This document shows positions 2,917-62,859 of a stretch of DNA of 64,000 nt, in pieces. Origin of the DNA: Chloroflexia bacterium (lineage in GTDB: Bacteria > Chloroflexota > Chloroflexia > DTKN01). The notes beneath the pieces are model-generated. The model saw only the letters and a list, made by a program, of their open reading frames with translations, was not told the origin of the DNA and ran no database searches. The translations under genes were made by a program, and so were the position numbers. Positions within the stretch are counted from its first letter, which is position 1; each line of letters starts with the position of its first letter. Where the stretch lies: assembly GCA_041082245.1 (NCBI GenBank), contig JBDOIE010000110.1, forward strand, positions 1,276 to 65,275, given 5' to 3'.

Positions 2917-2941
2917 AGGGACCTCCACTGTTAGCGCTTGA

Positions 2942-4021: not shown

Positions 4022-4040
4022 ACAGTATCCTCCTGTTGGC

Positions 4041-4070: not shown

Positions 4071-4134
4071 AAAGCAATCGGACAAATTCTTCTTGCTCTC
4101 TCACCCCCTTTCCGCGAAGGTGGTCAAGAGAACG

Positions 4135-21412: not shown

Positions 21413-21445
21413 CGAGATGACCTCCTCACTGTAGGGAACGTCGTG

Positions 21446-29251: not shown

Positions 29252-29463
29252 CGTGGGCTCCTCCTTCTTACGAAGCCGCCGATGACTTGGGAAAGCGCTG
29301 CCCGAGAAGGCAACGCGGACGAGAGGTCTGGAAAGTCGCGTTCCGATAAAAGTATAGCACTCGGGGAAACCCCTGTCAATGGTTGCGGGACGCCTGAGCT
29401 TGTAGTACAATACGGGCGGTCTGCCCCTGAGGGCATATACAATCATCCTTTAGGGAGGCATCG

Positions 29464-33369: not shown

Positions 33370-33378
33370 GGAGGCAGG

Positions 33379-37103: not shown

Positions 37104-37152
37104 GGTGTACCTTCAGCGCGTCGCGCGGTCGTTTTCGCAGAAGCGCAACGCC

Positions 37153-37181
37153 ATTATACCAGAACATCTGTTCTACGTCAA
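37153..37181 (-). promoter_or_regulatory. sigma70-type promoter TTGACG - 17 nt - (TGg)TATAAT for the FtsK-like operon
   Basis: The minus strand reads TTGACGtagaacagatgttctggTATAATgg, about 45 nt upstream of the 37103 ATG. Confidence 0.55.
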
Positions 37182-37860
37182 GTGGGGGGTCTCCGAGGTT
37201 GGGACCTCAGGAAACATCGTCATTAGCCTGTCGTCCACTGCCCCGTGCGCACTCAGGTGTGAAACTCACGACTGTCTTGCCCCGCTCCCTTGCAGTGCTG
37301 CGCGGCGCACGGGGGATCGATAGGGGAGGGGGCAAAGTCGCCCCCCGCCCCCCGTTCCTTCATGCTTGCAGGGCAGGGTAATGGGACCGTGTCCCGACAA
37401 GTTCGAACCTCGGGGGGCCGGCCGATCTCGGGCTACGAGTCCGGATGGAGAGACCCTCGTTCGACCGCCTGACCACCCAACTCCCCTCTCTTCTTGCGGC
37501 TGGGGCAACCGTCGCAGCAGTACGCCGGAGCGCATAGGTCCAGGCTAGACCGAGCGTTTCGGTTGTCATGCCAAGTGCAACGGCCCGGCCGCAACAGCCT
37601 CACCCGCACCTTACCAGCGGCCAGCGCGCGGAGCAGGCGACCGCTCCCTTCGGAAAAGCCTGCAGGGGCGCCCCGTCGTCGCCCCTGCAGGTTGGGCCCG
37701 GCTTGTCGGCGGTTTTCCCTGGACAGCTCCCTTCGTTATGGGCCCGCGGCTTGGATGGAGGTGTAAACAAACGAGAGAAGGACCCCGGCATTGCCGGACG
37801 GCCTTATCATCGTTTCCGGAGGATAGCGCATCGTCAGCGTCAGGTTGCAGTCCGGTTACC

Positions 37861-37903
37861 AAAGAGATCCCCCTCCCGCCCGCTGCGGCATGGCGGGAGG
37901 GGG
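37861..37903 (-). terminator. intrinsic terminator of the long fum-hdr operon (12-bp stem CCCCCTCCCGCC/GGCGGGAGGGGG then AUCUCUUU)
   Basis: The hairpin starts 13 nt after the 37916 stop on the minus strand. Confidence 0.5.
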
Positions 37904-37915
37904 CAGGCCAAAGCG

Positions 37916-39517
37916 CTATCGCTTTCCGACGTAGTCAGGAAGCAGGATCGGCGCGCGTTCCTGGGGGTCCAGCCCGGCCTCGCGCAGTTGCTGCTCCCAT
38001 TCCACGAGGTGCTGGAGCGTCGGCCGGCCCGGTACGACCTCGCGCGCCCGCTTGGCGGCAGCGATACCGGCCCGACGCCCGAACACGGTGATGTCCAGGA
38101 GCGAGTTGCCCATGAGCCGGTTTCGCCCGTGGATTCCGCCCACGACTTCTCCCGCGGCAAAGAGGTTGGGGATCTCGGTCGCGCCGTTGACATCGATCTT
38201 GATCCCCCCGTTCTGGTAGTGCAGCGTGGGGTAAACGAGCATCGGCTCCTTGGTGATGTCCACGCCGAAGCGGGCGAACTGGCGTACCATGGCCGGGAGG
38301 TCCCGTGCGACCGTCCCTGGCCCGTGGATGAGATCGATCATCGGGGAGTCAAGCCATACCCCCAGAAAGCCCGAAGGTGTGCGCACCCCCTTGCCCCGTT
38401 CCTGGCACTCGCGGATGATCGCGGCCGATTCTACGTCGCGGGTCTCCCGGGGGTTCACGAACTGCACGCCGTCGACGTTGAGCACCTGGGCGCCCAGGCC
38501 CCGCACCTTCTCGGTCACCAGGAAGCCGAGGATCTGCTCAGGAAAGGCCGCCCCCGTAGGGTGGTATTGCATGGTATCGATATGGAGCAGATGGGCTCCT
38601 GCCCGGTAGGCGAGCACCAGGCCGTCCCCGGTGGCCCCGTAGTGGTTCGTGGTGGCAAAGCCCTGGTAATGGAGCCGGCCGCTTCCGCCGGTAGCCAGGA
38701 TGGTGCACTTGGCGCGGGCCACGAGGTACTCTTCCGTCTCCATGTTCAACAGCACCGCGCCCACGCATTGTCCCTTGTCGTCCAGGATCAGCTCCACCGC
38801 AGCGGTAAACTCCAGGACAAAGATGCCGCTACGGTTGCGCACTTCGTCCCGCAGGGTACGCATGATCTCCGCGCCCGAGTAGTCGCGCGCAGAATGCATC
38901 CGCTTGCGCGAGGTACCTCCGCCGTGGATCGTGATCATCGTGCCGTCGGGCTCCTTGTCGAACATGCAGCCCAGCGATTCCAACCACAGGATCACTTTCG
39001 GCGCATCGAGCACCAGCGCTTCCACGAGATCCGGATCGTTTGCATAGTGCCCTCCGCCCATAACATCTAGGTAATGGATGGCCGGAGAATCGTTCGGCTT
39101 GTCGGCGGCCTGGATCCCTCCCTGGGCCATCATGGTGTTCGCGTCGCCGTGGCGCAGTTTCGTGACCAGCACCACACGGGCACCGTTCTCCTCGGCCATC
39201 AGCGCGGCCGCCGATCCGGCGCCACCGCCTCCGATCACAAGGACATCGGTTTCGATATCGGTCCTCGTGACGTCGAAATCCGGCGGGATGACCGGCCGCG
39301 CCTGGAGCAGCCGGGCCAGTTCGTGGGGCGCTTTTCCTCCCTTGTTCGGTCCCACCTGGAGTGTGGCGAACGCTTCCGGGATGAAATCCGGGTGGAAACG
39401 GCGCAGGAGGTCTTCCTTCTCCTGGGCCGAAAGCCGGGGAAAAGTCTCGGAAAGGCGCGCGGAGCGCGTGGCTTCGACCCGCTTGAGCGATTCGTACATT
39501 TCCGGGGTGTAGATCAT
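37916..39517 (-). CDS. FAD-binding flavoprotein, fumarate reductase/succinate dehydrogenase flavoprotein-like (FrdA/TfrA/NadB family, non-covalent-FAD type)
   Basis: ...DVLVIGGGGAGSAAALMAEENGARVVLVTK...DANTMMAQGGIQAA...ILATGGSGRLH... GGAGGAAG RBS. Confidence 0.8.
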   Translation of the reverse strand: MIYTPEMYESLKRVEATRSARLSETFPRLSAQEKEDLLRRFHPDFIPEAFATLQVGPNKGGKAPHELARLLQARPVIPPDFDVTRTDIETDVLVIGGGGAGSAAALMAEENGARVVLVTKLRHGDANTMMAQGGIQAADKPNDSPAIHYLDVMGGGHYANDPDLVEALVLDAPKVILWLESLGCMFDKEPDGTMITIHGGGTSRKRMHSARDYSGAEIMRTLRDEVRNRSGIFVLEFTAAVELILDDKGQCVGAVLLNMETEEYLVARAKCTILATGGSGRLHYQGFATTNHYGATGDGLVLAYRAGAHLLHIDTMQYHPTGAAFPEQILGFLVTEKVRGLGAQVLNVDGVQFVNPRETRDVESAAIIRECQERGKGVRTPSGFLGVWLDSPMIDLIHGPGTVARDLPAMVRQFARFGVDITKEPMLVYPTLHYQNGGIKIDVNGATEIPNLFAAGEVVGGIHGRNRLMGNSLLDITVFGRRAGIAAAKRAREVVPGRPTLQHLVEWEQQLREAGLDPQERAPILLPDYVGKR

Positions 39518-39547
39518 CGGCTTCCTCCGTTCATCCTTGCGGGCACG

Positions 39548-40228
39548 CTAGTCCGGCTCGATGTCCCTGCTGTTGTACTTCTCGGCCAGTTCCTCTTTCG
39601 ACATCGCCTTGAGGGCCGCGATCTCGGCGTCGTACTTGCCCGCTTCGATCTCCCGCACCCGTTCCGCCAGGTGCTGGGCGCGGGGCGCGATGTATCGCCC
39701 GTAGAGCCGCCGACAAAGGATGGCGATGTTGTACTGCACCTCCTCTGCCGGGCAGCGTGCTGCGCAAAGGCCGCACATGATGCAGTCGAACGACTTGTCG
39801 GCCACCGCCGCGATATCCCCGCGCATTGCGGCGGCCATATAAGCGCGCACGTCGATGTTCTGCGGGCACGCCTTCGTGCAGGTGCCGCACTGCAGGCAAC
39901 GAAGCACCTCAGGGTAAATCGAAAAGAGGGTTTCCGGGGTTGCCTTCAGTTCCTCCAGTTTGTACGGCCGGCGCTCGGCAGGGAAGAACGGGATCTGGGT
40001 GAGGTACATGTTCGGCTGCACAAGCGTGGCGCACGCCAGTCCGATGTGCAGCCGATAGTCCCCGGCAATCCGGTACACCGTCGCGCAGGCGCCACAGAAG
40101 CCGGCCCGACATCCACATCCCCGAAGGAGCCGATATCCGGCATACTCCATGGCACGCTGGATCGTCAGCGACGGGGGGACCATATACCGTTTGCCCATAA
40201 TGTAGATCGGGATGAGCTCCTCGGACAT
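39548..40228 (-). CDS. iron-sulfur subunit, SdhB/FrdB-like ([2Fe-2S] + two [4Fe-4S]-type Cys clusters)
   Basis: ...GCGCRAGFCGACATVY..., ...CLQCGTCTKACP..., ...CIMCGLCAARCP... AGGAGGAA RBS. Confidence 0.8.
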   Translation of the reverse strand: MSEELIPIYIMGKRYMVPPSLTIQRAMEYAGYRLLRGCGCRAGFCGACATVYRIAGDYRLHIGLACATLVQPNMYLTQIPFFPAERRPYKLEELKATPETLFSIYPEVLRCLQCGTCTKACPQNIDVRAYMAAAMRGDIAAVADKSFDCIMCGLCAARCPAEEVQYNIAILCRRLYGRYIAPRAQHLAERVREIEAGKYDAEIAALKAMSKEELAEKYNSRDIEPD

Positions 40229-40239
40229 CTCGGTTCCTC

Positions 40240-41367
40240 CTATCGCTCCACAACGTGCAGTTCATCCTCGCGGAAGACGGCCAGGGGCAGCTCTTCCTCC
40301 AGGCTTCGCCCGGCCTCGTAGTCGAAGAGCGCCTGGACCTCCTGCCCGATCGCGCGGAAGATGACCGTCAGCGGGATGTCGCTCGGACAACCATCCTCGC
40401 AGACCCCACACCCCACGCAGGAAGCCACCATGTGGTTCAAACGGGTGATCTGGAAGAGCAAGGTATCGGTCGGCATCCGCACGGCTCCCCGACGCCCAGC
40501 CCACTTCAGATACTGTTCCGAGGCGTGGTCGAACGTGGGGGTGCGGAAGATGCACTCCCGACAATAGCAGATCGGGCAGGTCACCGTGCAGTTGTGGCAC
40601 CGCAGGCACGCGGAAAAGAGCGAAAGCAACCCCTCACGGGTGCGTACCTGCTCGCGGAAAGCGGCGAAAGCCTCGTCGCGGCGCGCCAGCCGCGCCTCGC
40701 GTAGCCGGGCGATCGCCTCCTGCCGACCCGGCAGATCCCCCTCCTGAAGCCCCAGGACCCCGGCGAGTTCCGCGTGTGTCTCCTTCAGCTCCACCCCGAT
40801 TTCCTTCCGCGGATCCGTGCCGATCCACTCCAGCCGCACATCCACGCCCTGCGGCACGAAATGTTCGCAGATGCGGCAGGCCGTGCGCAGCTCCCGGTTC
40901 GGCCAGCGGAACCCTTCGGTCGGCTCGACGCTCTCCAGCAACCGCATCGTCAGGTCGGGTGTCTCCGCAACCATCGCGCCGTAATCGAGCACCCGGAAGG
41001 CACCGTAGCAGTCGACGCCGACGGTCAGCACACGGGCGAGGTTCACCTGGCGAAGCTTGGTCAACTCGACCGTGGCCCGCCACTCACACGGTTTCAGCAC
41101 CACGGCCAGCCGTTCCCGGGGTTCGGTGAAGGTCAACTGGGAAACCACCCGCGCCGATTGGATCGGCATCACCGGCGCGATCGGGTCGGCTTCCGCAAGG
41201 TGCGCCGGATCGCGCACCAGCGTTGGGACCAGGTTGCGCCCGTCGGGGGTAGCCACCGGGACCAGGACGCCGTCGACGACATTCTGCTCAAGCAGGAGAG
41301 CAAGCAGCCGCCTGAGCGTCCCCAGCGTGTCCCCTTGGGCAACAGGAACCGTTCCGCGAATTGGCAT
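40240..41367 (-). CDS. FrhB/FdhB/FpoF-like flavin- and FeS-binding protein (coenzyme F420 hydrogenase beta family) with C-terminal 2x[4Fe-4S] ferredoxin motifs
   Basis: ...CLRCHNCTVTCPICYCREC... and ...CVGCGVCEDGCP... AAGGAG RBS. Confidence 0.7.
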   Translation of the reverse strand: MPIRGTVPVAQGDTLGTLRRLLALLLEQNVVDGVLVPVATPDGRNLVPTLVRDPAHLAEADPIAPVMPIQSARVVSQLTFTEPRERLAVVLKPCEWRATVELTKLRQVNLARVLTVGVDCYGAFRVLDYGAMVAETPDLTMRLLESVEPTEGFRWPNRELRTACRICEHFVPQGVDVRLEWIGTDPRKEIGVELKETHAELAGVLGLQEGDLPGRQEAIARLREARLARRDEAFAAFREQVRTREGLLSLFSACLRCHNCTVTCPICYCRECIFRTPTFDHASEQYLKWAGRRGAVRMPTDTLLFQITRLNHMVASCVGCGVCEDGCPSDIPLTVIFRAIGQEVQALFDYEAGRSLEEELPLAVFREDELHVVER

Positions 41368-41400
41368 CTTTGGACTCCTTGTACGGTAGCCGGATCGTGT

Positions 41401-41826
41401 TCAGATCGCCCACTCCTTACGCATCGGGTTAGGGCCTTTCTCCTTAAGGTATTGCACCATCTCGGTCACGGTGTCGGCGAAGCGCCGCCCCTCGCTGGCG
41501 CTGATCCAGCGCAGCCACACACGGTCTTCTTCCAGGCCCAACTGTCGCAGCACGCTCTGGAGAATGGCCACCCGGCGGCGCGCCTTGTAGTTGCCGCTCT
41601 GGTAGTGGCAGTCCCCCGGGTGGCAACCGCCGATGAGGACGCCGTCCGCGCCCTCGATGAGCGCTTTCAGCACATAGACGGGGTCGACCGCCCCGCTGCA
41701 CATCAGCCGGATGATGCGGATGTTCGGCGGGTACTGGATGCGCGAGGTCCCCGCCAGGTCGGCGCCCGTGTAGGTGCACCAGTTACACAGGAAGGCGACG
41801 ATGCGGGGTTCGAACTCTTCGGGCAT
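41401..41826 (-). CDS. mvhD: methyl-viologen-reducing hydrogenase delta subunit (MvhD)-like [2Fe-2S] protein
   Basis: MPEEFEPRIVAFLCNWCTYTGADLAGTSRIQYPPNIRIIRLMCSGAVDPVYVLKALIEGADGVLIGGCHPGDCHY. The MvhD/FlpD family pattern. GGAGGAG RBS. The ORF's first 49 aa are trimmed. Confidence 0.75.
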   Translation of the reverse strand: MPEEFEPRIVAFLCNWCTYTGADLAGTSRIQYPPNIRIIRLMCSGAVDPVYVLKALIEGADGVLIGGCHPGDCHYQSGNYKARRRVAILQSVLRQLGLEEDRVWLRWISASEGRRFADTVTEMVQYLKEKGPNPMRKEWAI

Positions 41827-41896
41827 CGATGTCTCCTCCGCTCGCAAACGGACGTGCCGCAGGGCGGGAGCGCGGCTCCCGCCCTGCCCGTCCGGA

Positions 41897-42541
41897 CTAG
41901 GTCGTGCGGATGTCGCGCAGTTCGGCATCCGCCTGCTGCACCGCCGTACGCACTTGGTCTTCCGTGATCCCACGTACCTTCATCGTGATGCGGCCGTGGC
42001 TGCGGTCCTCGCCGTAGAAGGTGCCCAGAGAGAGGATGTCGCCGCCCTGGCCAGCGATCGCGGAGGCGAGCCGGGCAAGCGAACCGGGCTCGTTTCGGAC
42101 CGCTACGCTGACCCGCAGCCCCTGCTCTCGGGCCCCCAGCATCTCCAGGAAGACCTTGAAGAGGTCTGTCTCGGTGATGATCCCCACCAGCCGGCCGTCC
42201 TCGACCACTGGCAGCCCACCGATCTTGTGGTCGACCATGATGCGCGCCGCCTCTTCGATCGGGCAATCCGGGCAAACGGTGATCACCTCGCGCGTCATGA
42301 TCTCCTTCACCTTGAGCTTGGAGAGCAGGTAGCCGATCTCGTAGACGCTCAGGCTGGTTGCGGGAGAAGGGGATGCGTAGAGCAGGTCCTTTTCCGAAAC
42401 GATCCCGAGAAGGTTTCCGTGTCGGTCGATCACAGGCAGGCGACGAACACGGTTCTGCCGCATGAAGCTCAGCGCTTCGGTCACCGAGGTATCCGGCTCG
42501 ATGGTAATCGGATGGGTGGACATACGCTCCTTTACCAGCAT
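41897..42541 (-). CDS. CBS-pair + ACT domain protein
   Basis: MLVKERMSTHPITIEPDTSVTEALSFMRQNRVRRLPVIDRHGNLLGIVSEKDLL...IMTREVITVCPDCPIEEAARIMVDHKIGGLPVVEDGRLVGIITETDLF... Then an ACT-like tail. GAGGAGGAG RBS. Confidence 0.7.
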   Translation of the reverse strand: MLVKERMSTHPITIEPDTSVTEALSFMRQNRVRRLPVIDRHGNLLGIVSEKDLLYASPSPATSLSVYEIGYLLSKLKVKEIMTREVITVCPDCPIEEAARIMVDHKIGGLPVVEDGRLVGIITETDLFKVFLEMLGAREQGLRVSVAVRNEPGSLARLASAIAGQGGDILSLGTFYGEDRSHGRITMKVRGITEDQVRTAVQQADAELRDIRTT

Positions 42542-42557
42542 GGCACTCCTCCTCTGT

Positions 42558-45500
42558 TCACTCCAGCGCCTCGTCGACCATCGCCACCAGCTGGGCTTTC
42601 TCGAAGCCCAGATGCTGGGTCGCACCGCTCGGACAAGCTACCGCACAGGCTCCGCATCCCTGGCAGAGGACCTCGATAACCTCCGCGACGCGGGTTTCTT
42701 CGTTCAGCACACGGGCATCGTACGGACAAACGGCCACGCAGAGGCCACACCCCTTGCAGAGCCGGCTGTTCACCTGGGCGACGATCGCCTGGCCTTCCAG
42801 ACGATCCTTGCTGAGCAGGGTGGCCGCCCGGACGGCGACTCCCTGTGCCTGCGCGATCGCATTCTCGATCGGCATCGGCGAGTGCGCCAGGCCGCAGAGG
42901 AAGATGCCGTCAGCGGCAAAGTCGAGCGGGCGCAGCTTCACGTGCGCCTCCAGGAAAAAGCGATCCTGCGTGAGCGGCACCTTGAGCATCTGCGCCAGGG
43001 CAGCCTGCTCCGGGCGCGGCACGATCCCCGTGCTCAGCACGAGCCAGTCGGCCGGCAGGCCGATCGGTTCTTCCCCCGGGCTGCGGACGGTGATACGCAG
43101 CGAATCGCCTTCCACACTGACCTCCGGCGGTTCCTCCGGCCGGTATTCGAGAAACACGACGCCCTGGCGCCGCGCCTCTTCGTAGTAGACTTCCTGGAAA
43201 CCGTAGGCGCGGATGTCGCGGAAGAGCACTGTTACCCGGGCGAGCGGTTCGAGACGTTTGAGCCGCAGCGCGTTCTTGAGCGCCGAAGCGCAGCAGATGC
43301 GCGAGCACCAGGGGTGCTCCTCGTTCCGCGATCCCACGCACTGGATCATCACCACGGAAGGCGGGCGCCCCAATCCGAGCACGGCGCCCGAGTGGTTCAC
43401 GAGCTGCGCCTCGAACTCCCGCTGGGTCAGGACGCGTGGATGCTGGCCGTACAGGTACTCCCCGGGCTTCGGTTCGTAGGCCTCCGCTCCGGTCGCAACG
43501 ACGATCGCGCCATGGGCGATCTCCTCCACGCGCCCTTCGCTGGCCAGGTGCACCCGGCTCACAAAGCGTCCCACGTATCCGCCGACCTCGAGCAGTTCGG
43601 CACGGGTATAGACACGGACGCGCGGATGCGCAAGCACCCGGGCGACCGTCTCCTGAAGGAGCGCCTGGGGGTCGTTCCCGTAAAGCGTGTAGTGGAGATG
43701 GCGGAGATGTCCGCCCAGTTCCGCTTCACGCTCGATCAGGGTGACCGGGAAGCCCTGCTCCGCCAGCGCAAGCGCGGCAACCATACCGGAGAGGCCCCCG
43801 CCGATCACCAGTGCGCTCTGCTCGATCTCGATCGACGGCCGGTAGATCGGGCGCAATCGCAACGCCTTGGCGACCGCCATGCGCACGAGGTCCTTGGCCT
43901 TTTCCGTCGCTTCCTCCGGTGTCGCCTTGTGCACCCAGGAATCCTGTTCCCGGATGTTCGTCATCTCGAAGAGGTAAGGGTTCAGTCCCGCTTCGCGGAT
44001 CGTGTCCTGGAAGAGCGGCTCATGGGTGCGCGGGGTACACGAGGCCACGACCACGCGGTTCAGGCGCAGCTCGCGCACGGTGTCCGTGATCTTCTTCTGG
44101 GTATCCTGCGAGCAGGTATACAGGTTATGCTCCGCGTACGCGACGCCCGGCAGGGTGCGCGCATACTCCACCACCGCAGGGACATCTACCACGCTCCCGA
44201 TGTTGATCCCGCAGTGGCAGATGAACACCCCGACGCGCGGTTCCTCGAAACGCACGTCCAGTTCGGGCGGGTAGGTCTTGCTTCGCGTGAGCGTGCCACG
44301 CGCGGGGGCCAGCAGCCGGGCCGCGGCTGCTGCTGCCGCCGACGCTTCCACCACCGTTTCCGGGATGTCCTTCGGCCCCCGGAAGGCCCCGGCGACAAAG
44401 ATCCCCGGGCGCGAAGTCTCGACCGGCGCAAACTCGGACGTCTGGGCGAAACCGTAGCGGTTCAACCGCACCCCCAGCCGCTCCGCAAGCGCCCGCGCCT
44501 CCGTTCCCGCGACCAGCCCCACCGACAGGACAACGAGGTCGAACTGCTCCTCCACCACCGCCCCGTCGGGCCGGGTGTAGGTGAGACGCAGGTCGCGGGT
44601 CTCGGGGTCCTCCTTCAGCGAGGAGATGAAGGAACGGATGTAGCGCACCCCGTGCTCGCGCATCGCGGTCTCGTAGTAGGCATCGAACCCCTTCCCGAAT
44701 GCCCGCACATCCAGGAAAAAGATCGTCGGCTCGATATCCGGCGCGTGCTCACGGGCGATGATCGCCTCCTTGGTCGCGTACATGCAGCAGACCGAAGAGC
44801 AGTAGTTCTGGTCGCAGCGGCTTTCGCGCGAGCCGATGCACTGGATCCAGGCGATGCGGCGGGGTTCGCGTCCGTCGGAAGGGCGGGTGATGTGCCCGGC
44901 GAAGGGACCCGAGGCCGAGAGCATCCGTTCGAACTCGATCGAGGTGAGGACATTCGGATACCGGCCGTAGCCGAACTCTTCCTTCAGCCGGGCATCGTAC
45001 AGCCCGACCCCCGGGGTCAGGATGACCGCCCCCACCTCGAGCGCCCGCACCTCTTCCGTCATCTCGTGGTTGACCGCTCCGGCCTTGCAGGCGCGGGCGC
45101 ACGCGAGGCATTCGGAGCAGATGCCGCACTCCAGGCACCGCTCCGCCTCTGCGCGTGCTTCTTCCTCACTCAGCGGGAGATCCACTTCCACGAAGGAACG
45201 TATCCGTTCTTCCACCGGCCGCTGCTTCTTCTGCAGCCGTGGCCGCATCACGATTCGCCCCTCTGCCCGGGCGGAGGCAATCTCCTCGTCGCTCAGCTCG
45301 ACCACCGGCTGCAGCACCGGTTCCCGCAGCCCCGCTTCGCCGCGCAGGTAGCGATCGATCGCGCGCGCGGCGCGGTGTCCGGCGGCGATCGCGTCGACCA
45401 CGAACGTGGTTCCGGTCACCGCGTCGCCCCCGGCAAAGACGCCCGGACGGGACGTCATCAGCGTCTCCGGATCCACGACAAGCGTGCCGTTCCGGCGCAC

Positions 45501-47030: not shown

Positions 47031-47031
47031 C

Positions 47032-51171: not shown

Positions 51172-51216
51172 CGGCCCTCGATTCAGTCGCACCCTCGCGG
51201 CCCCTGCGCCGCGGTG

Positions 51217-52929
51217 CTACAGTTCCAAGGCATCGACCATCGCAAGGATCTGATCCGCGCTCCAGTTGTGCACCTGGGAAGCCTTGTTCGGGCAGGCCGC
51301 GACACACGCCCCACACGACTGGCACAGCGCTGGGTTCACAACGGCAACCCGGCGGCGGGCGTCCACCGTGCGTGCGCCGTACGGGCAGGCGCCGACGCAG
51401 ATCCCGCAGCCGGCGCAGATCTCCTCGATCACATAGGCCACCGTCGGCTCCTGGACCAGTTCCTGCTGGGAGAACAGGGCCAGCACCTTGGCCGCAGCGC
51501 CGCTCGCCTGTGCCACAGTATCCGGGATGTCCTTGGGAGCCTGGGCCGCTCCAGCAAGGAAAATGCCGGCGGTCAGGCTTTCCACCGGCCGCAGTTTCGG
51601 GTGGGCTTCGCTGAAAAACCCGTAAGGGTCGGTAGCCACACGGAGGCGCTGGGCGAGCTCCACAGCCCCCTCAGAGGACACAGCGGCCGTCGCCAGCACC
51701 ACGAGGTCTGCCGCGACTTCGATCGTCCGTCCACTGAGCGTGTCGACCCCCCAGACGATCGTGTGGTCTCCTTGCGGAAAGACCTTCGCCACCCGACCGC
51801 GAAGGTACAGGATGCCATCTGTCTCCATCGCTGCCTGGACGAACTCCTCGTACCCCTTTCCGGCGGAGCGGATGTCGATGTAAAAGACGGTGGCGTGTCC
51901 GTCCGGCACGCGCTGACGGAAGAGCCGCGCCTGCTTGGCAGTGTACATACAGCAGATCCGCGAACAGTACGGCATCCCGCGCTCGGGATCCCGCGAACGC
52001 ACGCACTGCACAAAGACGACTTCCTTCGGCACTTTGCCGTCGGAGGGGCGGCGCAGGCCGTCCGGTCGGGCGAGCATACGCTCGAACTCGAGCGCGCTGA
52101 CGACGTCCGCGTAGGCTCCGGCACCGTACTCGCCGAGCAGTCGCATCGGGAAAAGGTCGAACCCCGTGGCCACGACGATCGCCCCGACGTCCAGGGGGTC
52201 GCCGGCCGCGCTATCCGCTGCCCCGGCCGGCTTGAGGCGTGCCCGGAAGTTGCCGATATATCCTTCCAGCGAGGCTAGCTCGGTCTGCAGGTGCACTTCG
52301 ATGCGCGGGTGCTCCTCGACCGCCCGAATCCGCTCGGCGATCAGGTCCGGCCCGCCCCGGAAGTTGAGGTAAACGCCAGAAAGCTGCGCCACCTTCCCGC
52401 CCAGACGGTCGCTTCGTTCCACCAGCACGACCGGGTAGCCGGCATCCGCAATATCCAGCGCGGCCTGAAGGCCGGCAAGCCCCCCACCGAGGATCAGCGC
52501 CCGCCGGGTGATCGGCATCGCAAGGGGCTGGAGGGCCTCATCGCGCGCGGTCTTGGCAACCATCGTCCGGACGATTTCCGTCGCCTTGAGCGTCGCTTTC
52601 TCCGGCTCGGCCTGGTGCACCCAACTGCACTGTTCCCGGATGTTCGCGATCTCGCAGCAGTAGGGGTTGAGGCCCGCGGAAGCGCTTGCCTTGCGGAAGG
52701 TCGTTTCGTGCATCGCCGGCGAGCAGGCCGCGACAATCACGCCGTCCAGGTTCTGTTCGGCGATCGCCTGACGGATCAGGTCCTGGCCGGGTTGGGAGCA
52801 CATATACTTGTAGGTGGTGGCGTACACCACGTGCGGCTCGCTGCGGAGCGCTTCCGCCACCGCTTCTACGTCGACCGTCCCGGCGATGTTCAGCCCGCAG
52901 TGGCAGATAAAGACGCCGATCCGACGCAT
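51217..52929 (-). CDS. hdrA: heterodisulfide reductase subunit A (HdrA) homolog
   Basis: MRRIGVFICHCGLNIAGT...LILGGGLAGLQAALDIADAGYPVVLVE...CVRSRDPERGMPYCSRICCMYTAKQA...C-terminal CAGCGICVGACP / CQSCGACVAACP. Confidence 0.85.
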   Translation of the reverse strand: MRRIGVFICHCGLNIAGTVDVEAVAEALRSEPHVVYATTYKYMCSQPGQDLIRQAIAEQNLDGVIVAACSPAMHETTFRKASASAGLNPYCCEIANIREQCSWVHQAEPEKATLKATEIVRTMVAKTARDEALQPLAMPITRRALILGGGLAGLQAALDIADAGYPVVLVERSDRLGGKVAQLSGVYLNFRGGPDLIAERIRAVEEHPRIEVHLQTELASLEGYIGNFRARLKPAGAADSAAGDPLDVGAIVVATGFDLFPMRLLGEYGAGAYADVVSALEFERMLARPDGLRRPSDGKVPKEVVFVQCVRSRDPERGMPYCSRICCMYTAKQARLFRQRVPDGHATVFYIDIRSAGKGYEEFVQAAMETDGILYLRGRVAKVFPQGDHTIVWGVDTLSGRTIEVAADLVVLATAAVSSEGAVELAQRLRVATDPYGFFSEAHPKLRPVESLTAGIFLAGAAQAPKDIPDTVAQASGAAAKVLALFSQQELVQEPTVAYVIEEICAGCGICVGACPYGARTVDARRRVAVVNPALCQSCGACVAACPNKASQVHNWSADQILAMVDALEL

Positions 52930-54251
52930 CAGCCCTGCTCCTTCTGGGTCCAGCGCTGGAAGAGCGCGAGCACCTTAGCCGCGGCACCGCTCGCCTGAGC
53001 CACGGTATCGGGGATGTCCTTGGGACTCTGGGCGGCACCCGCAAGGTAGATGCCCGGACGCGTGCTCTCCATCGGCCGCATCGCCTCGTCGGCCTCCCGG
53101 AAGAAGCCGTGCTCGTCCACCTCGATCCCCAGGATGGCGGCAAGCTCCTGCGCGGAAGGATCGGCCACCACGGCCGTAGCCAGGACGACCATATCGGCGG
53201 CAACCTCGACCGGTTTGCCGGTGAGCGTGTCCGTTCCCCACACGATCACCTTGCCGTCCTGGGGGAAGAGCCGGGAGACGCGTCCGCGGATATAGAGCAC
53301 GCGCTCCTCTTCCATCGCGCGCTGGACGAACTCCTCATAGTTCTTGCCGGCGGAGCGGATGTCGATGTAGAAAACGTACGCCTGGCCGTCGTGCACGCGG
53401 TGCTTGTAGAGCATGGCGTGCTTGGCGGTGTACATACAGCAGATGCGCGAACAGTAGGGCATCCCGCGCTCGGGATCCCGTGAGCGCACACACTGCACAA
53501 AGACGACCTCTTTCGGCTCCTTCCCATCGGACGGGCGCCGGATCTGACCCGCCGTCGGACCGCTGGCGGAGAGCAGCCGCTCGAACTGGATACCCGTCAG
53601 CACATCCGCGAGCGCTCCTGCGCCGTACTCCCCGATTTCGGCCGGCGGATAGAGGCCGAAGCCTGTCGCCACCACGATGGCGCCCACCTCTTCCTCGACC
53701 GTCGTCTCCTGCTGGTCGAACGCGATCGCGCCGGTCGGGCACAGTTTTTCGCAGGCCCGGCACTTGCCCCGCTGGAAGTAGATGCAGGAGGCGGGATCGA
53801 TCACCGGCTTGTTGGGCACAGCCTGAGGGGAAAGGGTGTAGATCGCCTTGCGGCGGCCGACGCCTTCATCGAAATCCGACAGAACCCGAGCGGGGCACTT
53901 TTCCTGGCAAAGGCCGCACCCCGTGCAGCGGCTCCAGTCCACGTAGGCCGGCCGGCGACGGATCCGGGCGCGGAAACGGCCGACATCCCCCTCGAGCCCG
54001 ACTACCTCCGAGTAGGTGTAGAGGCGGATGCGCGGGTGCTGCCCCACTTCCACGGTGCGCGGGGTCAGGATGCACTGGGCACAGTCGAGGGTGGGAAAAG
54101 TCTCGGAGAGCTGCAGCATATGCCCGCCGATGGAGGGCCGGCGTTCCACGAGCACGACCTCGAAACCGGCGTTGGCGATATCCAGTGCTGCCTGCATTCC
54201 GGCAATGCCGGCCCCGATCACGAGGGCGCGCGGGATGCCGTCCGTCTTCAT
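52929..54251 (-). CDS. hdrA: heterodisulfide reductase subunit A (HdrA) homolog, second copy
   Basis: MKTDGIPRALVIGAGIAGMQAALDIANAGFEVVLVE...CTGCGLCQEKCP...CVRSRDPERGMPYCSRICCMYTAKHA. ATG overlaps the hdrB stop (ATGA). The ORF's first 104 aa are spurious. Confidence 0.85.
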   Translation of the reverse strand: MKTDGIPRALVIGAGIAGMQAALDIANAGFEVVLVERRPSIGGHMLQLSETFPTLDCAQCILTPRTVEVGQHPRIRLYTYSEVVGLEGDVGRFRARIRRRPAYVDWSRCTGCGLCQEKCPARVLSDFDEGVGRRKAIYTLSPQAVPNKPVIDPASCIYFQRGKCRACEKLCPTGAIAFDQQETTVEEEVGAIVVATGFGLYPPAEIGEYGAGALADVLTGIQFERLLSASGPTAGQIRRPSDGKEPKEVVFVQCVRSRDPERGMPYCSRICCMYTAKHAMLYKHRVHDGQAYVFYIDIRSAGKNYEEFVQRAMEEERVLYIRGRVSRLFPQDGKVIVWGTDTLTGKPVEVAADMVVLATAVVADPSAQELAAILGIEVDEHGFFREADEAMRPMESTRPGIYLAGAAQSPKDIPDTVAQASGAAAKVLALFQRWTQKEQG

Positions 54252-55129
54252 GGTGTGCCCACCTTCTCGGGAATGCGCGCCAGGAGCGGGGATGGATCGA
54301 CCGTGTGCCGCTCGAAGCCGAAGCCCTCCGTTTCCAGCCCGAGGGCGATCCCCAACACCTGGGTGATGTAGAACACCGGCAACGGCCGGAAACCCGGATA
54401 ACGCACGGCCATCTCCTGCTGGGGATGGTCCAGGTTGTAGTGGCAGAGGGGACAGCTTGTGACCAGGGCATCCGCACCGCTGACACGCGCCGCATGCAGG
54501 ATACGGTAGGAGGCATCGCGCGCGATATCTGGCGCTCCCACCGCCAGGTAGGACCCGCAGCACTCCCCGCGATGGGGATACAGCACCGGCTCAGCCCCGA
54601 GCGCCGCGAGGAAATCCTCGAACAGGTGCGGCATTTCCGGGTCGTCCAGAGCGATCTCGTCGGCCGGGCGAAGTAGGAAGCAGCCGTAGTAGGCGGCCAG
54701 CCGCAGGCCCTCCAGCGGTCGCACCACGCGCTGGCGCAGCGCTTCGAACCCGAGCCGGTCACGCAACAGGTCGAGCAGGTGCAAGACACGGACGCGCCCA
54801 TCGTACTGTGCTTCGATGAAGGCGTTGATCCGCTCGCGCCGCGCCTCATCCTCGCGCATCACCCGATTGGCACGCTTGGTCACGTTGTAACAGGTCGAGC
54901 AAAGTGCCAGGAGCTCTTCCTGTCCCATTTCGGCGGTGCGCACCAGGTTGCGCACCGCGCCGGCCAGCCGAAGGTCATCGTTGGTCAGAGGAAATGCCGC
55001 TCCGCAGCAGTTCCACTCGGGGATCTCGCGCAACACGATCCCCAGCGCTTCCAGGGATGCCCGCGCGGAACGATCGAGCCCCTGGGCCTTGGTGCTCAGG
55101 GTACATCCGGGGAAATAGGCGATCTCCAT
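54248..55129 (-). CDS. hdrB: heterodisulfide reductase subunit B (two CCG domains)
   Basis: MEIAYFPGCTLSTKAQ...EWNCCGAAF...YYGCFLLRP...GECCGSY...TSCPLCHYN. Two CCG motifs. Confidence 0.85.
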   Translation of the reverse strand: MEIAYFPGCTLSTKAQGLDRSARASLEALGIVLREIPEWNCCGAAFPLTNDDLRLAGAVRNLVRTAEMGQEELLALCSTCYNVTKRANRVMREDEARRERINAFIEAQYDGRVRVLHLLDLLRDRLGFEALRQRVVRPLEGLRLAAYYGCFLLRPADEIALDDPEMPHLFEDFLAALGAEPVLYPHRGECCGSYLAVGAPDIARDASYRILHAARVSGADALVTSCPLCHYNLDHPQQEMAVRYPGFRPLPVFYITQVLGIALGLETEGFGFERHTVDPSPLLARIPEKVGTP

Positions 55130-55154
55130 CTCCCGGTCTCCTTCTCAGCGGCCC

Positions 55155-55562
55155 TTAGATGGAGTACTTGCGGAAACCGCCGACGAACGCCTGCTGGGGC
55201 ATCTCCGCCAGAACTTCCGGGGGGAACTCCTCGATAGCGATGTGGCGGATACCCTGCTCCAGCGCCAGAGTGCGAAGCGCCTCCGTCAGGCGTGCCACGT
55301 CGATCCCCTTTGGGCAGCGGGCTTCGCACGTCAGGCAGGCCGCGCAGTACCAGATGGCACGCGCACGCAGCGCTTCCTCCACGCAGCCCAGCTGCAGCAG
55401 GCGCACGATCTGGTTGGGAAGCAGGTCCATCGCGCCCGCGGCAGGACAGCCGGCCGAACAGTTGCCGCACTGGTAGCAGGCCATCACGTCCTGGCCGCTC
55501 AGGTCTTCCACACGGCGGACAAGTTCGCTCCCCAGGGTGGACGGATTCAGAACGAGGCGCAT
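55155..55562 (-). CDS. hdrC: heterodisulfide reductase subunit C (2x[4Fe-4S])
   Basis: ...CYQCGNCSAGCP... and ...CAACLTCEARCP... Confidence 0.8.
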   Translation of the reverse strand: MRLVLNPSTLGSELVRRVEDLSGQDVMACYQCGNCSAGCPAAGAMDLLPNQIVRLLQLGCVEEALRARAIWYCAACLTCEARCPKGIDVARLTEALRTLALEQGIRHIAIEEFPPEVLAEMPQQAFVGGFRKYSI

Positions 55563-55583
55563 CTTCGTACCTCCAGGCGCGAC

Positions 55584-56132
55584 CTATACCTGCCGGTACA
55601 TCCTTTTCCCATCTTCGTAGGCATCCCCGCCGTAGATATCGTTCACCACGATCGCCGGGAAATCGACAACCCGTAGCCGGAGCAGCGCTTCCGCCCCCAG
55701 CTCGGGGTAGGCGATGACTTCGGACTCGACGATCGAACGGGCGATCAGTGCGCCGGCCCCCCCGATGGCGGCAAAATAGACCGCGCGGTACTCCTGCAGT
55801 GCCCGGCGCACGGCCTCGGAGCGGTTCCCTTTTCCGATCATCCCCTTGAGACCTGCCTGCAGGAGCGGGATCGTGTAGGGGTCCATCCGCCCGCTCGTCG
55901 TGGGGCCGGCCGAACCGGAGACCTGCCCGGGTTTGGCGGGAGCCGGGCCCATGTAGTAGATCACCTGCCCCCGGGGATCGAAGGGCAGGGGCTTTCCCTC
56001 TTGAAGCAGTGCCACAAGCCGCTTGTGCGCGGCATCGCGCCCGACGTAAAGCGTCCCGGTGATGAGCACCTGGTCGCCCGCCCGGAGGTCGGCGATCACT
56101 TCCTCCGTCAGTGGGGTGGAGATGTGCTTCAT
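55584..56132 (-). CDS. class I fumarate hydratase / Fe-S hydro-lyase beta subunit (FumB/TtdB-like)
   Basis: MKHISTPLTEEVIADLRAGDQVLITGTLYVGRDAAHKRL...YYMGPAPAKPGQVSGSAGPTTSGRMD...GMIGKGNRS. AAGGAGGAG RBS. Confidence 0.8.
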   Translation of the reverse strand: MKHISTPLTEEVIADLRAGDQVLITGTLYVGRDAAHKRLVALLQEGKPLPFDPRGQVIYYMGPAPAKPGQVSGSAGPTTSGRMDPYTIPLLQAGLKGMIGKGNRSEAVRRALQEYRAVYFAAIGGAGALIARSIVESEVIAYPELGAEALLRLRVVDFPAIVVNDIYGGDAYEDGKRMYRQV

Positions 56133-56152
56133 CGTCGATCTCCTCCTTGCCG

Positions 56153-56998
56153 CTACAGGACCGCTTCCTTGTGCCGTGCGGCGTGGCACTGGAGGTTCAC
56201 CGCCACGGGCAGGCTAGCAATGTGGCAAGGCTCTGCCTCCACGTGCACCGCAAGCGCCGTGATCCGCCCGCCGAAGCCCTGGGGGCCGATCCCCAACCGG
56301 TTGATGCGCTCCAGCAGTTCCTGCTCCAGTTCGTCGAGTTCTGGGTCCGGGTTCCGCGTGCCGATCTCGCGCAGGAGCGCGTGCTTGGCCAGGAAGGCCA
56401 CGCGCTCGAAAGTCCCCCCGATGCCGACTCCCACCACGATGGGCGGGCAGGGGTTTGCGCCCGCCTCGTCCACCGTGCGGACGACGAAATCGATGATCCC
56501 CTGGCGGCCGGCCGCAGGCGTGAGCATCGCCAGCCGGCTCATGTTCTCGCTTCCTCCGCCTTTGGGAGCTACCGTGATCCGCAGTTGCTCCCCGGGGACA
56601 ATCCGGGTATGGATAATCGCCGGGGTGTTGTCTCCGGTGTTGACACGCGCCGAAAACGGCTGCCGCACGGACGACTTTCGGAGGTAACCGTCGCGGTATC
56701 CACGGCGGACCCCCTCGTGGATCGCCTCGTACAGGTCGCCGCCCACGATATGCAGGTCCTGCCCCAGCTCGAGAAACACAACCGCGAGACCCGTATCCTG
56801 GCACATCGCCATCTGGGTCTCGCGGGCGATCCGCGCGTTCTCCAGGATCTGCTGGAGTACGACCCGTCCAGTTTCGGACTCTTCGCGCCGGAGGGCATCC
56901 TCCAACGCCGCGACGACGTCGGCGCCCAGATCGTAGTTGGCTTCCATGCACAAGCGTGCCACTGTCTCTGTGACGACACTGGCCGGCAGTTCCCGCAT
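56153..56998 (-). CDS. class I fumarate hydratase / Fe-S hydro-lyase alpha subunit (FumA/TtdA-like)
   Basis: MRELPASVVTETVARLCMEANYDL...QMAMCQDTGLAVVFLE...ANPCPPIVVGVGIGG...GFGGRITALAVHVEAEPCHIASLPVAVNLQCH. AAGGAGG RBS. Confidence 0.8.
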   Translation of the reverse strand: MRELPASVVTETVARLCMEANYDLGADVVAALEDALRREESETGRVVLQQILENARIARETQMAMCQDTGLAVVFLELGQDLHIVGGDLYEAIHEGVRRGYRDGYLRKSSVRQPFSARVNTGDNTPAIIHTRIVPGEQLRITVAPKGGGSENMSRLAMLTPAAGRQGIIDFVVRTVDEAGANPCPPIVVGVGIGGTFERVAFLAKHALLREIGTRNPDPELDELEQELLERINRLGIGPQGFGGRITALAVHVEAEPCHIASLPVAVNLQCHAARHKEAVL

Positions 56999-57156
56999 CG
57001 GTTCCTCCTTACGGCTTCCATGGACGAAAGGGACACCGTTCCGCTTACCTTCCCCGGCGGTGGCGGTGTCCCTTGAAAGCGGGCCATACCCGCATCCGCC
57101 ACTCCGCTGTGGCCCTTTCCAGCCGGTCAGCCCCATTGCTGCCCAGGCTGGCGCTC

Positions 57157-57186
57157 ATTATACACCTTACACCTCGCTTTGTCCAA
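57157..57186 (-). promoter_or_regulatory. sigma70-type promoter TTGGAC - 18 nt - TATAAT for the fum-hdr operon
   Basis: The minus strand reads TTGGACaaagcgaggtgtaaggtgTATAATgagcg, about 150 nt upstream of the fumA-like ATG. Confidence 0.5.
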
Positions 57187-57212
57187 TGATCGAGATCACA
57201 TATTGTGCGGGT

Positions 57213-57241
57213 TTGACAGGGCTTTACCGGTGCGCTAAGAT
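57213..57241 (+). promoter_or_regulatory. sigma70-type promoter TTGACA - 17 nt - TAAGAT for the divergent SBP gene (near-leaderless)
   Basis: gtTTGACAgggctttaccggtgcgcTAAGATgggtgtacaATG. The predicted transcript start is only a few nt before the ATG. Confidence 0.45.
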
Positions 57242-57250
57242 GGGTGTACA

Positions 57251-62829: not shown

Positions 62830-62859
62830 GGTCATCGCAAAGGACCTGTAGAGGCATAT

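Follow-up and report, generated by a model that had tools for sequence, protein, structure and literature searches.

In a Chloroflexia bacterium (GTDB lineage Bacteria; Chloroflexota; Chloroflexia; DTKN01), 13 genes that appear to form one operon join a class I fumarase to heterodisulfide reductase (Hdr)-type flavoproteins and to a flavoprotein/iron-sulfur (Fe-S) pair that is very probably a soluble fumarate reductase. The genes occupy positions 56998 to 37916, minus strand, of a 64,000-nucleotide (nt) stretch of DNA, referred to below as the window (NCBI GenBank assembly GCA_041082245.1, contig JBDOIE010000110.1, positions 1,276 to 65,275 of the forward strand). We propose that together their products reduce fumarate in the cytoplasm with electrons from NAD(P)H, through a fumarate reductase wired to flavins of the HdrA type, and that ferredoxin is reduced by electron bifurcation. 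We give this proposal as a whole an even chance of being right, and hypothesize the reduction of ferredoxin by bifurcation with confidence a little short of even.

Anaerolineae count among the commonest fermenters of anaerobic digesters, sediments and the subsurface; their energy conservation is poorly understood. If our proposal is correct, the system would be the first demonstrated bifurcating fumarate reductase and a general, hitherto unrecognized means by which fermentative Anaerolineae and some Bacillota conserve energy. Reduced ferredoxin would replace the quinone-linked proton-motive force, allowing extra H2 or Rnf-linked ATP per succinate, and fumarate would join crotonyl-CoA, heterodisulfide, pyruvate, NAD+ and menaquinone among the few high-potential acceptors that drive flavin-based bifurcation. 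Docking of MvhD and FdhB onto HdrA would then serve as a general-purpose socket to which redox enzymes of unrelated kinds can connect. The value of the system lies in its wide conservation in an ecologically dominant group together with a sharply testable mechanism.

A predicted 13-gene operon linking fumarase, Hdr and fumarate reductase-like proteins

Genes were called from codon-position GC and open reading frame (ORF) analysis in a window of 62-70% G+C. The products, with lengths in amino acids (aa) and all encoded on the minus strand, are as follows.

56998-56153, minus: fumA-like, class I (Fe-S) fumarate hydratase alpha subunit, 281 aa; Pfam Fumerase, E = 2e-120
56132-55584, minus: fumB-like, class I fumarate hydratase beta subunit, 182 aa; Fumerase_C, E = 1e-56
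55562-55155, minus: hdrC, 135 aa; two CxxCxxCxxxCP motifs, Fer4_8 and Fer4_17
55129-54248, minus: hdrB, 293 aa; two CCG domains (Pfam)
54251-52929, minus: hdrA1, 440 aa; thioredoxin-reductase-like flavin adenine dinucleotide (FAD) domain and inserted ferredoxin domain of HdrA
52929-51217, minus: hdrA2, 570 aa; N-terminal Fe-S domain, FAD domain lacking the ferredoxin insert, C-terminal 2x[4Fe-4S]
51192 or 51171-47032, minus: sensor histidine kinase, about 1380 aa; four GAF domains, HisKA, HATPase
47030-42558, minus: hdrL, 1490 aa; HdrA1-like, GltD/NfnB-like and HdrA2-like parts
42541-41897, minus: CBS-CBS-ACT small-ligand-binding protein, 214 aa (Pfam); accessory, possibly regulatory
41826-41401, minus: mvhD, [2Fe-2S] adapter, 141 aa; FlpD, E = 2e-54, also VhuD and HdrA2 C-terminal part profiles
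41367-40240, minus: FdhB/FrhB-like Fe-S (possibly flavin) subunit, 375 aa; full-length Protein Data Bank (PDB) matches to FdhB
40228-39548, minus: FrdB/TfrB-like Fe-S subunit, 226 aa; no CCG domain
39517-37916, minus: FrdA/TfrA-like flavoprotein, 533 aa; FAD and capping domains, conserved 88-aa N-terminal extension

Successive genes are separated, in order, by 20, 21, 25, -4 (ATGA), -1, 24 or 45, 1, 16, 70, 33, 11 and 30 nt, and most are preceded by a Shine-Dalgarno-like sequence. Three predicted expression signals frame the run.

57185-57157, minus: sigma-70-like promoter, TGGACA-17-TATAAT, 11/12 consensus matches
57150-56999, minus: structured leader of about 150 nt, minimum free energy -72.4 kcal/mol, z = -3.07; 0/200 shuffles fold as well
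37903-37869, minus: terminator-like hairpin, 12-bp G/C stem, -34.6 kcal/mol, z = -3.2

In a consensus scan of positions 37400-57350, the promoter was both the best site and the sole strong one on the minus strand. The terminator-like hairpin starts 13 nt past the frdA-like stop codon and is followed by an imperfect U-tract (AUCUCUUUGG); within the run, terminator-like hits are at chance level (14, against 9.3 +/- 3.2 expected). From this layout we infer that the thirteen genes are a single operon. A preliminary description of the window, made from its letters alone, had drawn the same picture: its run of 13 minus-strand genes spaced by -4 to 70 nt agrees with ours in coordinates and distances, its strong terminator is the hairpin above, and its TTGGAC-18-TATAAT promoter is the identical site in another notation. 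Its labels for all 13 products were likewise confirmed or sharpened by the Pfam and NCBIfam assignments. A divergently transcribed solute-binding protein gene lies upstream of the operon, and an FtsK-like gene lies downstream, past a gene-free stretch of about 800 nt.

The FrdA-like and FrdB-like proteins form a putative soluble fumarate reductase

The FrdA-like protein has the fold and active site of the succinate dehydrogenase/fumarate reductase (Sdh/Frd) family. Its predicted structure (predicted local distance difference test score, pLDDT, 70.5) matched E. coli FrdA (1kf6_A) best, confirming the Sdh/Frd fold. When HMMER alignments were mapped onto E. coli SdhA numbering (in brackets), the protein was found to carry the complete fumarate/succinate catalytic set: H319-P-T (H242), T335-E336 (T254-E255), R360-D361 (R286, the proton shuttle), H433 (H354) and R467 (R399), with R339 also present. 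Asn127 occupies the site of the histidine that binds FAD covalently (SdhA His45, FrdA His44) in 9/9 sequences checked; TfrA has Cys there. The catalytic residues, R339 and N127 are the same in the window and eight relatives, including those from Bacillota and Aerophobetes, and are invariant in 32 homologs. Non-covalent FAD favors fumarate reduction over succinate oxidation, and efficient succinate oxidation needs covalent FAD.

Among curated NCBIfam profiles, all of whose cut-offs it misses, the FrdA-like protein scores highest with TfrA (363 bits, cut-off 718, covering positions 5-407 of 546), followed by an Sdh/Frd profile (290 bits) and the L-aspartate oxidase (NadB) profile TIGR00551 (285 bits, cut-off 453). 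The nearest named family in a library clustered at 50% identity is TfrA of Methanospirillum and Methanoregulaceae (46%), and pairwise identity with Methanospirillum TfrA is 42% over 416 aa. The protein ends about 40 aa past the FAD domain and has no match to Succ_DH_flav_C (PF02910).

The preliminary description had named L-aspartate oxidase and AprA as identities to be checked for this protein, and neither held. The NadB assignment was rejected on the TIGR00551 score and on the position of Glu121 of E. coli NadB, which we take to be diagnostic for L-aspartate oxidase: it is His198 in the FrdA-like protein and its relatives, and Thr in the Aerophobetes homolog. The only APS/PAPS-reductase-type PDB match (8a8o_A, E = 7e-10) is distant compared with those to Sdh, Frd and NadB (2e-69 to 1e-50), and a role in AprAB/QmoAB-like sulfur metabolism was accordingly set aside. 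We also discarded a type E succinate:quinone reductase with HdrB as an SdhE-like anchor, since hdrB does not adjoin frdBA and no covalent FAD is expected.

The partner protein combines a [2Fe-2S]-type motif (C40x4C45x2C48x17C66) with two CxxCxxCxxxCP motifs, and these cysteines are invariant or nearly so in 26 homologs. This cluster complement is that of the N-terminal half of TfrB minus its CCG domains. Its gene always adjoins the frdA-like gene or sits about one gene away. Because its similarity to FrdB/SdhB is weak, we call the protein FrdB-like on the basis of its architecture and this constant pairing with the flavoprotein, and not for having passed a family test. Taken together as a pair, these two proteins are, we think with good confidence, a soluble fumarate reductase.

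Fumarase, a split HdrA and an HdrL fusion

The two fumarase-like proteins exceed NCBIfam equivalog cut-offs for fumarate hydratase (FumA, NF004885, 420 bits, cut-off 276; FumB, NF005310, 253 bits, cut-off 238) and fall far under those for L(+)-tartrate dehydratase, an assignment that makes FumAB a two-subunit class I fumarate hydratase by sequence family.

The Hdr proteins carry the hallmarks of HdrABC. HdrB retains both CCG motifs intact (C9..C41C42..C77xxC80 and C150..C190C191..C226xxC229), HdrC has two four-cysteine motifs, and the HdrA proteins have FAD and Fe-S domains. HdrB scores 187 bits with HdrB and 169 bits with MFR SdhE profiles, and HdrC 70 bits with HdrC profiles, all under the cut-offs. 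Because these proteins miss the curated equivalog cut-offs for methanogen Hdr, we regard them as Hdr-like and not as orthologs of the CoM-S-S-CoB reductase (CoM, coenzyme M; CoB, coenzyme B).

What had been described as tandem HdrA is two adjacent hdrA genes, as stated, but the products are complementary halves of one HdrA. Residues 7-427 of HdrA1 align to 141-557 of methanogen HdrA (8rvv_A, E = 7e-132); HdrA1 lacks the N-terminal and C-terminal domains of HdrA and keeps the TFPTLDCxxCIL motif. Residues 3-233 and 246-567 of HdrA2 align to 13-243 and 327-651 of 8rvu_a (E = 2e-153), and its TFPTLDC motif is degenerate. By these alignments, HdrA1 and HdrA2 are predicted to make up one complete HdrA in two polypeptides. 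The two are 67% identical over 246 aa (blastp). Their C-terminal halves are 50-67% identical in every lineage checked (the window and loci L001, L006, L008, L013 and L014 of the comparison below), with a DNA identity of 70% in the window, a pattern that indicates either an ancient duplication with shared constraint or episodes of gene conversion.

The 1490-aa protein, noted earlier as an HdrA/GltD-like fusion, can be identified more precisely as having the HdrL architecture of the sulfate-reducer literature (PMC5947623). Its residues 21-166 and 640-895 are HdrA1-like and its residues 932-1490 HdrA2-like (blastp against HdrA1 and HdrA2). Between them, at about 150-660, is inserted a GltD/NfnB-like NAD(P)H/FAD/2x[4Fe-4S] module (Fer4_20, Pyr_redox_2) with a GGGNVAMD motif, which passes the NF009410 NAD(P)-binding protein profile (558 bits, cut-off 516). 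The operon thus has the composition of an HdrL module: a large HdrA with an embedded GltD-like NAD(P)H domain, encoded beside mvhD and hdrBC.

The protein earlier called FrhB-like belongs to that family neighborhood but is specifically FdhB-like, resembling the adapter subunit of Fdh-MvhD-Hdr complexes. It matches FdhB of solved complexes of this type (9t1s_M, 7e-28; 8rvu_E, 7e-24; 7bkb_E, 3e-22), with residues 11-361 aligning to 16-372 of 8rvu_E, and its matches to the Pfam FrhB_FdhB N and C domains are weak and under cut-off.

Conservation of the reductase-adapter gene cluster

Species-representative genomes were searched with HdrL, giving 80 loci that were retrieved with 10-kb flanks and searched by tblastn with all 13 window proteins; individual loci are cited by our numbers. 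Homologs of the FrdA-like and FrdB-like proteins at least 70% identical are abundant in metagenome-assembled genomes (MAGs) of Anaerolineae and other Chloroflexota. The genes for MvhD, the FdhB-like protein, FrdB-like and FrdA-like are contiguous in L001-L010, L013, L034 and L037, and in L012, L014 and L061 hdrA-type genes stand between the FdhB-like and FrdB-like genes. This four-gene core occurs in many Chloroflexota, in one Bacillota MAG (L034) and partly in the Aerophobetes MAG L043. Where an HdrL ortholog is at least 57% identical and enough downstream sequence is available, Frd genes follow in 10/10 loci. The tie that the preliminary description saw between the Frd pair and the MvhD, FdhB-like, HdrA and HdrL genes is therefore conserved across phyla.

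Full-length HdrL (49-57% identical) also occurs with MvhD and HdrCB and without Frd, in Syntrophales, Thermodesulfobacteriota, Acidobacteriota, Dehalococcoidia and others. MvhD is at least 70% identical to that of the window in all Frd-linked clusters, compared with 39-61% in the Frd-less HdrL modules; the exceptions, at 72%, are L038 and L069, where no Frd gene is seen or the contig ends. That Frd-linked MvhD forms its own subtype suggests a specific partnership. Just before hdrL, where the window and L006 have the histidine kinase gene, a second HdrC'B' pair or else a fused HdrD-like protein is encoded in most relatives.

The cluster of the Bacillota MAG (L034, JBFLYN010000013, 2397-18303) encodes, in order, FumA, FumB, malic enzyme, HdrC, HdrB, HdrA, HdrC', HdrB', HdrL, MvhD, FdhB-like, FrdB and FrdA. 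Its HdrA is unsplit (650 aa), and upstream of the cluster are genes for rhodanese and GGDEF proteins. Between them, the products of the cluster would take pyruvate/malate to succinate.

The pair is also found in other company. In marine Gammaproteobacteria/Thiotrichales MAGs (L085/L086, 7366-10891), FrdB-like (212 aa), FrdA-like (545 aa) and NuoF-like genes form a three-gene unit in which the FrdA-like gene lies between the other two; its product is 50% identical to that of the window and has the same N-terminal extension. By gene content, this unit looks like a soluble NADH:fumarate reductase. Because Gammaproteobacteria pair them with a NuoF-like protein, the FrdB-like and FrdA-like proteins may be viewed as a portable soluble reductase fed by varied NAD(P)H modules. 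The four-gene core and this simpler NuoF-linked version would make clear test constructs.

More distant FrdA-like homologs were also seen. One, 46% identical, is encoded by Prochlorococcus sp. MIT 1201 (WP_413360575). Another, of 406 aa (44% identical, no N-terminal extension), lies at L087 10001-14120 together with Fumerase, Fumerase_C, ComA (phosphosulfolactate synthase) and histidine phosphatase genes, an arrangement that hints at sulfonated C3/C4 acids as the substrates of a fumarase/Frd-like pair. The gene contexts of distant 478- and 492-aa relatives were unrelated.

A model for fumarate reduction coupled to HdrA-type flavins

In the model that we favor, the operon would provide a cytoplasmic, quinone-independent branch from malate to succinate whose last step is coupled to HdrA-type flavoproteins. 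FumAB, assigned above curated cut-offs, would convert malate to fumarate, and the FrdA-like protein, a TfrA-type flavoprotein with putatively non-covalent FAD, would reduce fumarate to succinate, as its conserved catalytic residues suggest. The FrdB-like protein ([2Fe-2S] plus 2x[4Fe-4S]), the FdhB-like protein and MvhD would relay electrons between FrdA and an HdrA-type flavoprotein through their iron-sulfur clusters, a role we infer because solved Fdh-MvhD-Hdr supercomplexes are analogous and the gene adjacency is invariant. The FrdAB-like pair would sit where FdhA sits in the methanogen complexes, in which FdhB and MvhD dock the dehydrogenase onto HdrA.

NAD(P)H would enter at the GltD/NfnB-like module of HdrL, to judge from its domain content and motifs; this is the only hydride-donor site evident in the operon. 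We hypothesize that an HdrA-type FAD, in HdrL and/or an HdrA1:HdrA2 heterodimer, splits the electron pair, sending one electron downhill to fumarate (E0' about +33 mV) and the other uphill to ferredoxin via the C-terminal 2x[4Fe-4S] domains. Flavins of the HdrA type and a pair of C-terminal ferredoxin domains are what a low-potential output would call for. HdrBC retains both of its CCG motifs and would constitute a thiol/disulfide site. Summed up, the model predicts 2 NAD(P)H + fumarate + 2 Fd(ox) -> 2 NAD(P)+ + succinate + 2 Fd(red) (Fd, ferredoxin), exergonic by about 40 kJ on standard potentials. Electrons must flow to fumarate, because the succinate/fumarate couple at +33 mV cannot be the mid-potential donor of a bifurcation. 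Given the NAD(P)H site of HdrL, the HdrA-type flavins and the two C-terminal ferredoxin domains, this bifurcation equation appears to be the most economical model, analogous to bifurcation driven by crotonyl-CoA or heterodisulfide.

A more specific structural reading, in which Frd is plugged into HdrA via the MvhD/FdhB adapter with the methanogen electron flow reversed and with split and fused HdrA units, we put forward tentatively, as somewhat less probable than an even chance. The gene content and linkage that the preliminary description interpreted as an electron-bifurcating Hdr/Mvh-type module wired to malate-fumarate-succinate chemistry are thus borne out, with bifurcation itself still at the level of hypothesis.

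Several observations weigh against our proposal. Use of MvhD/FdhB as an exit to a +33 mV acceptor is without precedent, the solved complexes using this route inward from low-potential donors, and the intact HdrBC means that the canonical high-potential exit is still there beside the predicted Frd route. The FdhB-like protein could itself bind a hydride donor, for example F420H2, in which case HdrL is not necessarily the entry point. The FrdB-like protein is as weakly similar to HdrC as to SdhB/FrdB/TfrB; a PDB profile search returned weak, ambiguous matches to HdrC and W. succinogenes FrdB, and an AlphaFold2 model built with 26 homologs (pLDDT 55, predicted template modeling score, pTM, 0.30) was too poor to be used. 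Finally, the union of fumarase with the Hdr/Frd operon, which the preliminary description noted, is found in the window clade (L006) and L034 and is not universal: L010 has FolD and a pterin-binding methyltransferase upstream and no fumarase, and L008 has unannotated ORFs there. Although the L010 arrangement recalls a Wood-Ljungdahl MetFV-Hdr complex, that identity was rejected, as no MetF was found among the gap ORFs scanned in this locus.

Alternative readings of the gene cluster

Two alternatives keep fumarate as the substrate and change how electrons reach it. The operon might work as a split thiol:fumarate reductase, in which HdrB, HdrC, FrdB-like and FrdA-like oxidize a thiol to reduce fumarate, as TfrAB does, while HdrL and HdrA re-reduce the disulfide with NAD(P)H and bifurcate to ferredoxin; a diffusible thiol/disulfide would connect the two halves, for the same net stoichiometry as our model. 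TfrB is in effect a FrdB-like Fe-S half fused to CCG domains, and HdrB, HdrC and FrdB-like match different parts of the TfrB profile NF004898; TfrA is the closest relative of the flavoprotein; most related loci have HdrCB or HdrD-like proteins in two or three copies, so that one site could oxidize and another reduce; and Flx-Hdr has been described as passing electrons "to ferredoxin (and thiols)" (PMC7282089). However, the window has a single HdrBC pair, so that this scheme fits the multi-copy relatives better, the neighbors of frdBA in most loci are mvhD and the fdhB-like gene and not hdrBC, the FrdB-like protein lacks a CCG domain, and no operon gene is a candidate for a thiol carrier; we consider such a shuttle unlikely. 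A simple soluble oxidoreductase passing electrons from NAD(P)H (or F420H2) to fumarate would dispense with bifurcation altogether, HdrA/HdrL serving for input only or the Hdr proteins carrying out disulfide chemistry of their own and being merely co-regulated. The Gammaproteobacteria unit, which has a simple NuoF-like NADH module and no Hdr parts, the role of methanogen FdhB/FrhB-family proteins as hydride-transfer modules and the wide occurrence of HdrL-MvhD-HdrCB modules without Frd are all compatible with it. Yet three or four HdrA-type FAD domains and two C-terminal ferredoxin domains recur beside frdAB across three phyla, which would be odd for a downhill reaction, and the distinct MvhD subtype suggests a specific partnership. 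This simpler arrangement also seems to us doubtful.

The remaining alternatives question the reaction itself. With every curated cut-off missed, with fumarase adjacency not universal and with a 406-aa relative found in a sulfolactate/coenzyme-M-like context, the FrdA-like protein might act on L-aspartate, a sulfonated or methylated fumarate analog or an enoate, the neighboring fumarase being incidental. This is quite improbable given the invariance of the full dicarboxylate-binding and proton-shuttle set, the His or Thr in place of the NadB glutamate, FumAB that pass as fumarate hydratase, malic enzyme beside fumarase in the Bacillota cluster and 42-46% identity to TfrA, itself a fumarate reductase. 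The preliminary description had also allowed for the opposite direction, in which succinate is oxidized. This might take place, for instance, in syntrophic propionate/succinate degradation, with reduced ferredoxin driving NAD(P)H formation (confurcation). Succinate oxidation is an energetic bottleneck in syntrophs such as Syntrophus, Smithella and Syntrophobacter. HdrL modules are common in these genera, as seen in our locus scan and in PMC5947623, but none of their HdrL loci in the scan has Frd genes. In addition, Asn replaces the covalent-FAD histidine, and the mean of the succinate (+33 mV) and ferredoxin (about -450 mV) potentials, about -210 mV, is too positive for reduction of NAD(P)+ at -320 mV. 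We therefore regard operation in reverse as very improbable.

Relationship to characterized and proposed systems

The closest counterpart that we found in the literature is the "succinate operon" of Pseudoclostridium thermosuccinogenes, which comprises genes for fumarate hydratase and a putative transporter together with seven for Flx-Hdr and two for a fumarate reductase (PMC7282089). It was upregulated about 4-fold on average under CO2 limitation, not significantly for every subunit, and ferredoxin-coupled fumarate reduction was proposed for the organism with reference to a 2019 preprint (PMC7282089). Judged by its published description, it shares with the window a fumarase, an Hdr-type module with an MvhD-type FlxD and a two-gene, membrane-free fumarate reductase, and it is supported by transcriptomics and flux reasoning only. 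The window differs in having HdrL for NAD(P)H input instead of FlxABC, a split HdrA, an FdhB-like subunit, embedded histidine kinase and CBS-ACT genes and a Chloroflexota host; no FlxA, FlxB or FlxC subunit is encoded in the operon, and MvhD, the FlxD equivalent, is all that it shares with FlxABCD-HdrABC in this respect. For Desulfovibrio alaskensis, a physiological link between Hdr-Flox and fumarate reduction has also been reported, according to a citation in PMC5861303.

The HdrABC/HdrL/MvhD/FdhB-like module has been described from sulfate reducers, Syntrophobacter fumaroxidans among them (PMC5947623). Sfum_0819-0824 of S. fumaroxidans and the HdrL cluster of Desulfobacterium autotrophicum have HdrL, MvhD, an FdhB-like Fe-S protein and HdrBC in common with the window. 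Unlike the window, these sulfate-reducer and syntroph clusters lack both a fumarase and an FrdAB-like pair; the acceptor proposed for them is DsrC or a disulfide, and their MvhD is of the other subtype.

Methanogen TfrAB includes the closest biochemically characterized flavoprotein (42-46% over about 410 aa) and is soluble and quinone-independent. Like the FrdAB-like pair, it lacks the covalent-FAD histidine and has an Fe-S subunit with [2Fe-2S] and two four-cysteine motifs. The FrdA-like protein differs from TfrA in its 88-aa N-terminal extension and in missing the C-terminal 130 aa or so, and TfrB carries fused CCG domains where the window has a separate HdrB. TfrAB uses CoM-SH and CoB-SH, and neither coenzyme is expected in the window bacterium. 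The likeness to thiol:fumarate reductase that the preliminary description saw thus holds as regards TfrA as nearest relative and does not extend to family membership, since the FrdA-like protein falls well short of the TfrA cut-off (363 vs 718 bits) and the FrdB-like protein lacks the CCG part of TfrB.

In methanogen Fdh/hydrogenase-MvhD-HdrABC complexes (7BKB, 8RVU, 9T1S, 5ODC), HdrA, HdrB, HdrC, MvhD and FdhB-type subunits are homologous to those of the window. The difference lies in the plugged-in enzyme, which would here be a fumarate reductase facing a high-potential acceptor and not the low-potential donor FdhA or MvhAG, in the two-part HdrA and in the extra NAD(P)H-binding HdrL. No MvhAG or FdhA catalytic subunit was found in the operon or its flanks. 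Complex II shares the flavoprotein fold and catalytic residues of the FrdA-like protein; the window departs from it in having no membrane-anchor genes in the operon, no covalent-FAD histidine, no Succ_DH_flav_C and an atypical Fe-S subunit.

Our literature search returned no paper on this cluster in Chloroflexi and none showing a bifurcating fumarate reductase biochemically. The suggestion that the system is not described as such holds only in part: the same logic was already proposed for P. thermosuccinogenes (PMC7282089), and the HdrL module is known (PMC5947623). What is new is the replacement of Flx by HdrL, the split HdrA, the FdhB-like adapter and the different phylum.

Regulatory genes and the operon leader

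The sensor histidine kinase listed by the preliminary description as part of the operon is present but accessory. Its N-terminus, as read from the translation, is hydrophobic and apparently membrane-spanning, and the operon contains no response regulator gene. The kinase is kept in L006 (53% identity) and absent from L002-L005, relatives whose proteins are 79-97% identical to those of the window. In L002 and L003 (about 2035-2440) and L005 (about 2180-3110), the last 15 nt or so of the kinase ORF remain before hdrL. Because L006 has the gene and these relatives keep its 3' scar, deletion in the relatives is likelier than insertion in the window lineage, which we reject; and since close relatives have deleted it, the kinase is evidently dispensable. 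The CBS-ACT gene was found outside the window only in the closest relatives, L002-L005. By their distribution, both genes are putative lineage-specific regulatory add-ons. In other Anaerolineae, response regulator and histidine kinase genes flank the Frd/Hdr cluster (L009, 21219-23382; L061, 6477-8296), and regulation by sensor kinases may be recurrent even though the particular kinase differs.

The structured leader contains a GC hairpin of 10 bp (GGGACACCG/CGGUGUCCC), followed by UUUCGU directly before the fumA ribosome-binding site, and may be an attenuator or ligand-sensing element. An Rfam scan of the whole window at gathering thresholds gave no match in the leader. The L006 locus is cut inside fumA.

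Other features of the window

The gene-free stretch downstream of the frdA-like gene (37112-37915) holds several strong GC hairpins, such as CTGCAGGGGCG...CGCCCCTGCAGG near 37690-37660. It gave no Rfam match at E <= 1, and a tRNA gene search found none.

Elsewhere in the window, genes fitting an anaerobic fermenter encode SelA (selenocysteine synthase; 33370-34761, plus), a corrinoid-binding protein (20777-21445, minus), a URO-D/MtaA-like methyltransferase (27977-29449, minus) and an ADP-forming acetyl-CoA synthetase (29431-31554, plus); despite SelA, the window contains no tRNA-Sec. Positions 4124-4272 (minus) hold a cobalamin riboswitch (59 bits, E = 4e-12). The ORF that directly follows it (2942-4123) has weak repeats of the prenyltransferase/squalene-hopene-cyclase type and is an unusual gene for B12 control. 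Two genes of the FemAB family are present at 8540-9868 and 62830-63921.

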